In this document: in pieces, positions 15,538-48,040 of the stretch | Layout of the letters: the number at the start of each line of letters is the position of its first letter | How positions within the stretch are numbered: the first letter of the stretch is position 1 | NCBI RefSeq assembly: GCF_003334335.1 | Contig: NZ_QOWQ01000012.1 | Strand: one strand, 5' to 3' | Length of the DNA: 64,000 nt | Origin: Escherichia coli | Lineage (GTDB): Bacteria > Pseudomonadota > Gammaproteobacteria > Enterobacterales > Enterobacteriaceae | The notes under the pieces: generated by a model | What the model was told of the DNA's origin: nothing | The model's database searches: none | Seen by the model: the letters and a program-made list of their open reading frames with translations, nothing else | Position numbers and translations under genes: made by a program

Positions 15538-15837
15538 CTGGCACGCGATGGGTTGCAATTAGCCGGGGCAGCAGTGATAATGCGCCTGCGCGTTGGTTCT
15601 CAACGCTCTCAATGGGGGCTCTGTTGGTTCTCCCGCAACGCTACTCTGTTTACCAGGTCAGGTCCGGAAGGAAGCAGCCAAGGCAGATGACGCGTGTGCC
15701 GGGATGTAGCTGGCAGGGCCCCCACCCATTTCTGCCTCCCACCGTTTCGTCAAAAAATCCCAACATGGCTAAACTTTAACCACAACTGACGTCGCAAGAA
15801 TTGTCTGGCTGCGCAGTACGCTTCGGAGGTATGTCTG

Positions 15838-46369: not shown

Positions 46370-46453
46370 ACACCGTCGCTTAAAGTGACGGCATAATAAT
46401 AAAAAAATGAAATTCCTCTTTGACGGGCCAATAGCGATATTGGCCATTTTTTT
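46370..46453 (+). ncRNA. chiX: Hfq-dependent small RNA ChiX (MicM/SroB/RybC)
   Basis: ybaK-ybaP intergenic; acaccgtcgcttaaagtgacggcataataataaaaaaatgaaattcctctttgacgggccaatagcgatattggccattttttt matches the ChiX sequence as I recall it, ending in hairpin ggccaatagcgatattggcc plus T7. Confidence 0.75.
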
Positions 46454-47246
46454 AGCGCAACATTTGCGGCAAATTCCCTTCTCCATACAGGTGTAGTGCA
46501 CCGACCGCGACCACATATCGCCCCGGCGGCATGGCGCGTAATTTATCCCGCCAGGCGAGATTTCGCTGATGCATCAGCACATCGTACAGCGACTGACTGA
46601 ACGTATTGGGCAGCGTTATATCATTATTTTGCGGCGGTGCATTCAGCCACCAGCTCATCATTTGTTGCAGCAACCGTGCGTTGGTATGCCAGTGGGTCAG
46701 CGTATCGTCCAGCAGCGCCAGTCCTTTGTCAGGGAGCTGGAGCAACATGGCAATCTGGTTTTCAGCCCCTTCCAGTTCAATCACGGGTTTATGTTGTTGC
46801 TTCGCCGCCTGCAATAGCTGGTAATCGATACCGTATTCTGCCCGCAGCCCCAGTTTTTGTGCCTGCGTCGCCTGAAGAACCATCGCGATTTGCCACAGCG
46901 GTTGGGTAGAAAAGAGTGAGGGAGAAATGCCCATCTCCTGGCTAATGTGCTGCAGGTTTTGGAGTTGCTCCTCGCTAATGCGCTCTTCCAGCGCCTCGCA
47001 GGCAGGCAAATTAGCAAAAGGCGTATCGCTGGTGGAAACATCCGCCTCGACGATCAGCGCATCGGCGTTTTTGAGCTTTTTGAGCAAACGGGTGGGCAGG
47101 GGAGCCATATCGTGGCTACCCATATGAATACTGCCAATCAGATGAAAATGGCGATTGCCGGGGAGGGTGATATCGATGGCAGGCCAGGTGTAATGATTAC
47201 CGCGCAGCGCGGCCCAAAGCGTTTTTACCCGGTACAACAGATCCAT
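46452..47246 (-). CDS. ybaP: TraB/GumN-family protein YbaP
   Basis: 264 aa; MDLLYRVKTLWAALRGNHYTWPAIDITLPGNRHFHLIGSIHMGSHDMAPLPT... Confidence 0.85.
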   Translation of the reverse strand: MDLLYRVKTLWAALRGNHYTWPAIDITLPGNRHFHLIGSIHMGSHDMAPLPTRLLKKLKNADALIVEADVSTSDTPFANLPACEALEERISEEQLQNLQHISQEMGISPSLFSTQPLWQIAMVLQATQAQKLGLRAEYGIDYQLLQAAKQQHKPVIELEGAENQIAMLLQLPDKGLALLDDTLTHWHTNARLLQQMMSWWLNAPPQNNDITLPNTFSQSLYDVLMHQRNLAWRDKLRAMPPGRYVVAVGALHLYGEGNLPQMLR

Positions 47247-47383
47247 ACGACCTCCCTTTGTGAAATATCATGCTAGCGCGCGGTGAGGGATGGCGCAAAT
47301 GGAGTTGGAGACTTGTTTAATGTGTTTGTATGATTCAGTATGTTCTTGCATCGCTATTCACAAGGAAGCAACAGTTAAAAACC

Positions 47384-47725
47384 ATGAAACAGGCAACAAG
47401 AAAACCGACGACACCCGGAGATATTCTTCTCTATGAATATCTGGAACCGCTCGATTTGAAAATCAATGAGTTAGCAGAGTTGCTGCATGTTCATCGTAAT
47501 AGCGTCAGTGCACTGATCAATAACAATCGTAAACTCACTACTGAGATGGCATTTCGTCTGGCGAAAGTTTTTGATACCACAGTCGATTTTTGGCTAAACC
47601 TCCAGGCGGCGGTTGATCTTTGGGAAGTTGAAAACAACATGCGCACCCAGGAAGAATTGGGACGGATTGAAACAGTGGCTGAATATTTGGCACGCCGTGA
47701 AGAGCGTGCAAAAAAGGTCGCGTAA
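47384..47725 (+). CDS. ybaQ: XRE-family HTH protein, HigA-antitoxin-like (no partner toxin adjacent)
   Basis: Track ORF 131 aa; ATG at 47384 gives 113 aa MKQATRKPTTPGDILLYEYLEPLDLKINELAELLHVHRNSVSALINNNRKLTTEMAFRLAKVF (HTH_XRE). Confidence 0.8.
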   Translation: MKQATRKPTTPGDILLYEYLEPLDLKINELAELLHVHRNSVSALINNNRKLTTEMAFRLAKVFDTTVDFWLNLQAAVDLWEVENNMRTQEELGRIETVAEYLARREERAKKVA

Positions 47726-47746
47726 GGCCAAAACATCGCTTCATCT

Positions 47747-48000
<254 letters not shown>

Positions 48001-48040
48001 AAATGCGCCACCCTAAAGCAGCGCATCCGCAATGATGTAC

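Follow-up and report, generated by a model that had tools for sequence, protein, structure and literature searches.

Background

The described counterpart of the gene considered here is the higB-1/ybaQ module of Escherichia coli phylogroups B2 and F. Among 18 strains, ybaQ proved essential in five (Rousset et al., bioRxiv 10.1101/2020.05.25.114553). These belong to B2 and F and carry higB-1 upstream of ybaQ; the exception is CFT073, in which the toxin is truncated. Knockdown of ybaQ in strain S88 led to over-expression of higB-1 (Rousset et al., bioRxiv 10.1101/2020.05.25.114553). According to the same study, most phylogroups, that of K-12 included, lack higB-1, and phylogroup D has lost both genes. 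YbaQ had been listed earlier as a solitary antitoxin, and ygjN/ygjM as a pair (RASTA-Bacteria 2007). Tagged YbaQ has also been studied by ChIP-exo in K-12, which yielded binding regions and a motif (Gao et al. 2018).

Both the solitary status of YbaQ (2007) and the identity of its lost partner, with essentiality data (2020-21), are therefore already published, and the findings below carry little weight as a discovery on that account. What this analysis adds is a count of haplotypes over 5426 genomes, a conserved operator of four half-sites and its absence from the stretch that we analysed, a replacement segment that does not align with the toxin-bearing haplotype and is common to other Escherichia species, and close homologues on P1-like phage-plasmids. 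The stretch, hereafter "the window", is 64,000 nucleotides of E. coli contig NZ_QOWQ01000012.1.

Results and Discussion

The ybaQ gene and its product

The window has the K-12 gene order ushA, ybaK, sroB, ybaP, ybaQ, copA, and positions 46900-47800 are 100% identical to MG1655. RefSeq annotates the equal coordinates of K-12 MG1655 as ybaQ, "HigA family addiction module antitoxin" (WP_000806442.1). The list of open reading frames places a protein of 113 amino acids at 47384-47725 on the plus strand, with the ATG at 47384 and the stop codon ending at 47725. The start of ybaP is divergent from ybaQ, and 137 bp (47247-47383) separate the two genes. The features of the coding region are:

47384-47725, plus strand: ybaQ (113 codons and a stop codon), coding for an antitoxin/repressor of the HigA family with an XRE-type HTH, without a toxin (open reading frame, 2EBY, TIGR02607, RefSeq)
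47429-47593, plus strand: HTH DNA-binding domain, ybaQ codons 16-70 (Pfam HTH_3)
47705-47722, plus strand: C-terminal RAKKVA, the last six ybaQ codons, a ClpXP recognition signal of the C-motif 2 type (sequence; PMC9775585, PMC2907309)

The start was placed at 47384 because the homologues all begin with MKQATRKP and because both the PDB entry and RefSeq use this position. An open reading frame of 131 amino acids from an ATG at 47330 was considered as the ybaQ start and rejected, its extension being unconserved.

Several lines of evidence place YbaQ in the HigA family. Its sequence and that of PDB entry 2EBY ("putative HTH-type transcriptional regulator YbaQ") are 100% identical from end to end. 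The protein matches TIGR02607, the NCBIfam HigA equivalog ("HigA family addiction module antitoxin"), with a score of 105.3 bits (E = 1.1e-30), well above the curated cut-off of 47.7 bits, and the match takes in positions 2-80 of the 81 in the model. Pfam HTH_3 (PF01381) matches residues 16-70 (E = 1.6e-10), and this match, the identity to 2EBY and the solved HigA relatives agree in assigning an XRE/Cro-C1-type HTH fold; the nearest solved relatives are of HigA type (3TRB, 3CEC, 7CSV/6JPI, 6F8S/6F8H, 2ICP and 4MCX). The HMM search that the first-pass annotation had proposed thus bears out its statement that YbaQ has the size and HTH of a HigA-type antitoxin. Within the HTH domain, the stretch HVHRNSVSALINNNRKLT is almost unaltered in the homologues from phage D6 and plasmids.

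The C-terminal RAKKVA has been catalogued as the C-motif-2 ClpXP tag of YbaQ (PMC9775585) and is in use as a degradation tag (PMC2907309). A ClpXP signal at the C-terminus fits an unstable antitoxin, and proteolytic instability of YbaQ would be predicted from it.

Three structured RNA elements were also found in the window. The sroB sRNA (Rfam RF00368, 82 bits) lies at 46370-46453 on the plus strand, between ybaK and ybaP, and is kept in all haplotypes examined. A DnaX frameshift element (32522-32586, 96.8 bits) and a small SRP RNA (15622-15718, 68 bits) are both expected in this part of the K-12 chromosome.

Absence of a toxin from the window

The first-pass annotation described ybaQ as a gene between an upstream space too short for a toxin and a downstream REP array, and both observations hold. 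The 137-bp upstream space is too short, and the only open reading frames of at least 25 amino acids near it are located at 47290-47436 (plus strand, 48 amino acids, overlapping the ybaQ start in another frame), 47268-47351 (minus strand, 27 amino acids) and 47197-47298 (minus strand, 33 amino acids). None of the small open reading frames around ybaQ resembles a toxin; they are short and overlap ybaQ or REP units. The array downstream is:

47747-48007, no strand assigned: REP/BIME array of 2.5 units of 101 bp, between ybaQ and the copA end (direct repeats D1/D2; Rfam naRNA4)

Rfam naRNA4 matches are found at 47751-47828 and 47852-47929. The array is without a counterpart in a toxin-bearing strain (FDAARGOS_1292, discussed below), in which 57 bp lie between ybaQ and copA, and the copy number of the array after ybaQ varies among Escherichia lineages. 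The REP/BIME units at 47747-48007, and another at 40613-40690, match naRNA4 on both strands.

Searches of the whole window gave the same answer as the inspection of the flanks. With HigB-1 as a tblastn query, nothing was found in the 64 kb (best E = 0.09), and an HMM built from 13 toxins of the HigB-1 family found nothing among 1827 six-frame segments of the window with all filters off (best E = 2.8). The search for HigB-like genes and small open reading frames that the first-pass annotation had suggested accordingly yielded no toxin-like neighbour, and the domain assignment of YbaQ remained HigA. Neither YbaQ nor HigB-1 had a PADLOC defence-system match. YbaQ thus qualifies as a solitary antitoxin: no toxin is adjacent to it or present anywhere in the window, and at the sensitivity of megablast the 4160 genomes without the toxin hold no close copy of higB-1. 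A HigB (PF05015) toxin gene directly upstream of the antitoxin, in an operon, is missing from the window and is found at the orthologous locus in 1266 genomes.

Haplotypes at the ybaP-copA locus in E. coli

The locus was surveyed in 5426 complete E. coli genomes. When the ybaP-ybaQ region was used as a query, the match in one class of strains was split by an insertion annotated as "type II toxin-antitoxin system RelE/ParE family toxin". In FDAARGOS_1292 (L001) the order is ybaP, an open reading frame of 100 amino acids encoding the toxin, a 35-bp gap, and ybaQ; the YbaQ accession in this strain is that of K-12, WP_000806442.1. The 100-residue toxin, HigB-1, matches Pfam HigB-like_toxin (PF05015) end to end (E = 9.4e-32) and PHROG 3066 ("toxin of TA system"). 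Among solved structures it is closest to chain 6F8S_B, a "Putative Killer protein", whose XRE-family partner in that entry, chain 6F8S_A, is one of the matches of YbaQ. In some B2 strains, for example LF82 (NC_011993.1, 512732-513033), the 303-nt higB-1 query spans 302 nt, which suggests a 1-nt deletion and hence a frameshift; the gene is still annotated as a toxin there.

The gene higB-1 is present in 1266 of the 5426 genomes, always as one chromosomal copy; in those toxin-bearing strains that were examined, ybaQ follows it directly. A 125-nt probe for the orphan junction (window 47296-47420) matched in full in 3567 genomes and not at all in 593; in exactly 1266 the match was confined to the part from window position 47378 onward, which begins 6 nt before the ybaQ ATG. 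The orphan state therefore accounts for 66% of the genomes, the paired state for 23%, and the state without the 5' end of ybaQ for 11%. Because exactly 1266 genomes have higB-1 and exactly 1266 lack the orphan junction while retaining the ybaQ start, the cognate toxin appears to be absent from the orphan lineage rather than placed elsewhere in it.

This result separates the two readings that the first-pass annotation had offered. The description of ybaQ as an orphan, antitoxin-like regulator stands; the suggestion of a split module, with ybaQ serving a toxin gene at another place in the genome, does not, and we consider it very improbable. Split and trans-acting antitoxins do exist, but higB-1 occupies one chromosomal place in 1266 genomes and is found in none of the others at the sensitivity of megablast, nothing HigB-like occurs in the window, and the other K-12 toxin of the HigB family, ygjN/higB, to our knowledge has an adjacent antitoxin of its own.

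The state without ybaQ comprises two different structures and so has at least two origins. In E. coli EP91A (L022, 2848-3018) a clean 372-bp deletion removed window positions 47332-47703 from the orphan type, leaving the last 21 nt of ybaQ; there is no REP array. In E. coli AR_0006 (L002) ybaQ is replaced by about 430 bp that include a 270-bp repeat element, and a repeat-containing stretch takes the place of ybaQ in 350 genomes. The repeat itself is GC-rich, about 270 bp long and unannotated; it lies at L002:2971-3241, in the ybaP-copA interval, and at L021:1501-1771 in K-12, between lysO and aqpZ. It occupies a median of three places per E. coli genome, K-12 included, and a search of Rfam with the copy in the ybaQ-less haplotype gave no match. 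The counts and structures described in this section agree with those of Rousset et al.

The sequence upstream of ybaQ

The space between ybaP and ybaQ consists of a part that all haplotypes have in common and a part specific to the orphan type:

47247-47307, no strand assigned: ybaP-proximal intergenic part common to all haplotypes, with 1 SNP in 61 bp relative to the toxin-bearing strain; also kept in strains without ybaQ
47308-47377, plus strand: orphan-type segment in place of about 400 bp of promoter, operator and higB-1, with no GCAC or GTGC half-site (alignment; probe boundary at 47378)
47306-47334, plus strand: promoter-like site TGGAGA, 17 nt, TATGAT, which could drive orphan ybaQ (consensus scan, 9 of 12 matches)

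In the alignment, 76 bp of the orphan type face 409 bp of the paired type, and the local score of 8, against a shuffle mean of 8.8, indicates no similarity beyond chance. A toxin or promoter remnant was sought in 47308-47383 and rejected, as global and local alignments to the 409 bp of the B2 type were no better than those of shuffled sequences. An ungapped match of 57% between the orphan segment and the promoter region was discarded as not significant, since 157 of 1000 shuffles reached it. The difference between the haplotypes is a sharp-edged replacement with no recognisable simple deletion, and we claim no deletion scar; given that the 76 bp are not significantly alignable with the toxin haplotype, a simple deletion is not demonstrated.

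The orphan junction is also found in two other species-level lineages of Escherichia (L004 and L009), where the segment is 93-97% conserved. Its presence in these lineages indicates that the event is old, or that the haplotype has spread by recombination.

The promoter-like site at 47306-47334 is the sole candidate for transcription of orphan ybaQ; it is a consensus match, and the number of such sites is not above that expected from shuffles. The AGGA nearest the orphan ybaQ ATG lies about 16 nt upstream (window 47362-47386), as compared with an AAGG at about 8 nt in the paired haplotype, so that translation of orphan ybaQ may be initiated more weakly.

Downstream of the replaced segment the haplotypes are nearly the same. 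Over the 342 nt of ybaQ, the orphan and paired copies differ by four synonymous substitutions and one substitution in the stop codon, with no amino-acid differences, a pattern that suggests purifying selection on the orphan protein.

These observations bear on the reading of orphan ybaQ as a relic without function, in the course of slow loss, which we regard as doubtful. The gene has been lost independently at least twice in E. coli, by the 372-bp deletion and by the repeat-element replacement; it is frameshifted in Escherichia sp. E1V33; and in the orphan type about 16 nt, rather than the roughly 8 nt of the paired type, separate the Shine-Dalgarno-like AGGA from the ATG. Yet the orphan junction is old, as judged by its presence across Escherichia species, and the protein is nonetheless intact and unchanged in 3567 genomes, with every coding difference from the paired copy synonymous. 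K-12 also makes the protein, which has been recovered as a ClpXP substrate (PMC9775585).

A conserved operator upstream of paired toxins

The operator was defined from 14 loci, namely the E. coli pair of B2, eleven of the pairs in other genomes and two on mobile elements (phage D6 and a plasmid of Salmonella); L011, L012 and L020 did not enter this set. All 14 have ATGCACTTGYGCACAGTGC-N5-GTGC upstream of the toxin, and a fuller consensus, ATGCACTTG(C/T)GCACAGTGC-N5-GTGC(R)nTA, is likewise found in 14 of 14. The layout, GCAC-N4-GCAC-N1-GTGC-N5-GTGC, comprises four half-sites arranged as overlapping inverted repeats. In the B2 strain the half-sites lie across a promoter (TTGCGC, 17 nt, TACAAT), overlapping both its -35 and -10 elements. 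Such a layout is typical of an autoregulated toxin-antitoxin promoter.

We infer that YbaQ binds the GCAC/GTGC operator, which is consistent with the YbaQ motif reported in the higB-1 promoter (Rousset et al., bioRxiv 10.1101/2020.05.25.114553). DNA of the sequence ATGCACTTGCGCACAGTGCTTGTGTGCATTACAAT would be expected to bind YbaQ, and window 47247-47383 would be expected to stay unbound. This interval contains no GCAC or GTGC and no inverted repeats or palindromes; an autoregulatory operator over the promoter is therefore lacking at the orphan locus. The operator pattern, allowing up to three mismatches, had no match in the 64-kb window, and the looser GCAC-N9-GTGC had two, which is the level expected by chance.

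Orphan YbaQ could have been co-opted as a transcription factor for chromosomal genes that have nothing to do with a toxin, a possibility that we entertain tentatively. The ChIP-exo binding regions and motif obtained in K-12 (Gao et al. 2018) are consistent with it, as is the absence of amino-acid changes between orphan and paired YbaQ; Rousset et al. suggested "other functions" because ybaQ is conserved without the toxin. On the other hand, no operator-like site occurs in the 64-kb window, the gene has been lost from about 11% of genomes, and the texts examined on K-12 YbaQ name no target gene or phenotype.

Relatives in other taxa and on mobile elements

A scan of other taxa, with one genome per species as defined by GTDB, returned 17 loci. 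Three lie at the ybaP-copA position and all three are of the orphan type (an E. coli, Escherichia sp. MOD1-EC7003 and Escherichia sp. E1V33). The remaining 14 are in unrelated contexts, on 13 Enterobacterales contigs and in one Caldilineaceae MAG, and every one of them has a HigB-1 homologue directly upstream. The paired loci come from Trabulsiella, Citrobacter, Enterobacter, Kluyvera, Sodalis, Erwinia, E. albertii, Escherichia sp. ESNIH1, Escherichia sp. E1V33 (a second locus) and the distant Caldilineaceae MAG. Pairing in all 14 relatives at other loci indicates that the pair is the normal, mobile form and the orphan the exception.

The toxin is damaged in four of the 14 paired loci, where the adjacent antitoxin looks intact. 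Two toxins have in-frame stops (L007:2679-2981 and L013:2382-2687), one is truncated at the N-terminus (L011:2659-2925) and one is frameshifted (L012:2653-2939); the hosts are Citrobacter portucalensis, C. koseri, Escherichia sp. ESNIH1 and Enterobacter sp. Bisph1. Toxin decay is thus recurrent, and proceeds in the same direction as in E. coli.

Escherichia sp. E1V33 carries both forms. At ybaP-copA its orphan ybaQ (L009:3001-3360) is frameshifted near codon 93 and has lost the ClpXP tail, and a complete D6-like toxin-antitoxin pair is found on a different contig (L010:2627-3336). D6 is a P1-like phage-plasmid in which the pair, orf70/orf71, sits among tail genes. Global alignment gives 76% identity between the D6 antitoxin and YbaQ (tblastn gives 78%), and the D6 toxin is 80% identical to the B2 HigB-1. 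The D6 module, or an 82%-identical variant, also occurs on plasmids of about 75-95 kb in E. coli and Salmonella, and the D6-type toxin is plasmid-borne in 76 of the 5426 E. coli genomes. Because the antitoxins of the E. albertii and E1V33 pairs are 98% identical to that of D6, these two loci are probably on phage-plasmid contigs. In E. albertii NBRC 107761 (L019, about 2590-2630) the 5' end of the toxin gene has about four to five tandem 7-nt AATGACC units, each with an ATG, where D6 has about two; these repeats could displace the toxin start or change its reading frame.

With such modules arriving on mobile elements, cross-talk between them and the chromosomal orphan YbaQ is conceivable. The orphan might neutralise the HigB-1-like toxin of incoming D6-type phage-plasmids and plasmids, repress its promoter, or both, so that loss of the element would no longer be lethal. 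We think this unlikely, although the similarity of the D6 and plasmid antitoxins to YbaQ (76-82%) and of their toxins to B2 HigB-1 (80%) speaks for it, as do the same operator and nearly the same HTH residues in the mobile pairs, the occurrence of the D6-type toxin on plasmids in those 76 genomes, and the purifying selection suggested for the orphan protein. Against it, YbaQ and the D6 antitoxin diverge strongly over their last 20 residues, antitoxins of type II systems are often specific for their own toxin, and carriage of 1.4% would be a weak selective force. The further proposal that most E. coli have kept orphan YbaQ as an immunity factor against the HigB-1-type modules of D6-like phage-plasmids and related plasmids seems to us slightly less probable again. 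Were it true, the separation of ybaQ from the family operator would free YbaQ expression from toxin-antitoxin autoregulation.

Origin of the solitary ybaQ

Taken together, the evidence makes it very probable that the window retains, in its ybaQ gene, the antitoxin half of a chromosomal higB-1/ybaQ module of the HigBA type. The complete module has the order promoter, higB-1, ybaQ. Its antitoxin, a dimeric XRE-HTH protein, would repress the operon at the four GCAC/GTGC half-sites over the -35 and -10 elements and would neutralise HigB-1, a RelE-like toxin that, by analogy with its family, may act as a ribosome-dependent mRNase. YbaQ itself is a substrate of ClpXP through its C-terminal RAKKVA. 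The K-12-like lineage would then have had about 400 bp of operator, promoter and toxin replaced by about 70 bp of unrelated sequence. The protein stayed unchanged, and the solitary ybaQ would now be transcribed from a different upstream sequence, unlinked from the operator of the family.

That the paired state is ancestral is inferred by parsimony from the universal pairing in other taxa, and agrees with Rousset et al. We counted against the proposed origin the evidence that the orphan is dispensable in at least some lineages, namely the 593 genomes without its 5' end and the one Escherichia species in which it is frameshifted. None of the readings of the orphan's present role, as a regulator, as a relic, or as protection against incoming toxins, in that order of plausibility, excludes this origin.

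The survival of ybaQ as half of a module makes the locus a clean natural example of module decay, in which the toxin was lost first and the antitoxin was kept and sometimes later lost. It also illustrates that a gene of the core genome can be essential only where a strain keeps an accessory toxin.

Comparison with known systems

The gene in the window is the orthologue of ybaQ in the higB-1/ybaQ module of phylogroups B2 and F, as it occupies the same locus, from ybaP to copA, and encodes the same YbaQ protein. It differs from that module in being without higB-1, the promoter and the four-half-site operator, in place of which there are about 70 bp of unrelated sequence. The REP array after ybaQ is found in the window only, as compared with the B2 strain examined.

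The D6 pair, orf70/orf71, has the operator and gene order of the E. coli chromosomal pair. Unlike the window gene it is complete and on a mobile element, and the last 20 residues of its antitoxin differ from those of YbaQ.

Among solved structures, the closest toxin-antitoxin relative is that of PDB entries 6F8S, 6F8H and 6FIX, in which an XRE regulator is joined by a "Putative Killer protein", and which we take to be GraA/GraT (GraTA) of Pseudomonas putida. In GraTA the toxin gene comes first and the antitoxin is an HTH repressor. The relationship is distant in sequence (YbaQ to the XRE chain, E = 3e-10; HigB-1 to the killer-protein chain, E = 3e-14), and YbaQ has a longer C-terminal tail than the 6F8S antitoxin, ending in the ClpXP signal. 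HigBA of Proteus vulgaris plasmid Rts1 and the HigA entries 2ICP/2ICT, presumably of E. coli CFT073, and 4MCX, 4MCT and 6CHV, presumably of P. vulgaris, belong to the same HigA family as YbaQ (E = 3e-9 to 6e-6) and have the same XRE-HTH fold. Their antitoxins are of another subfamily and, in contrast to YbaQ of the window, are part of complete modules.
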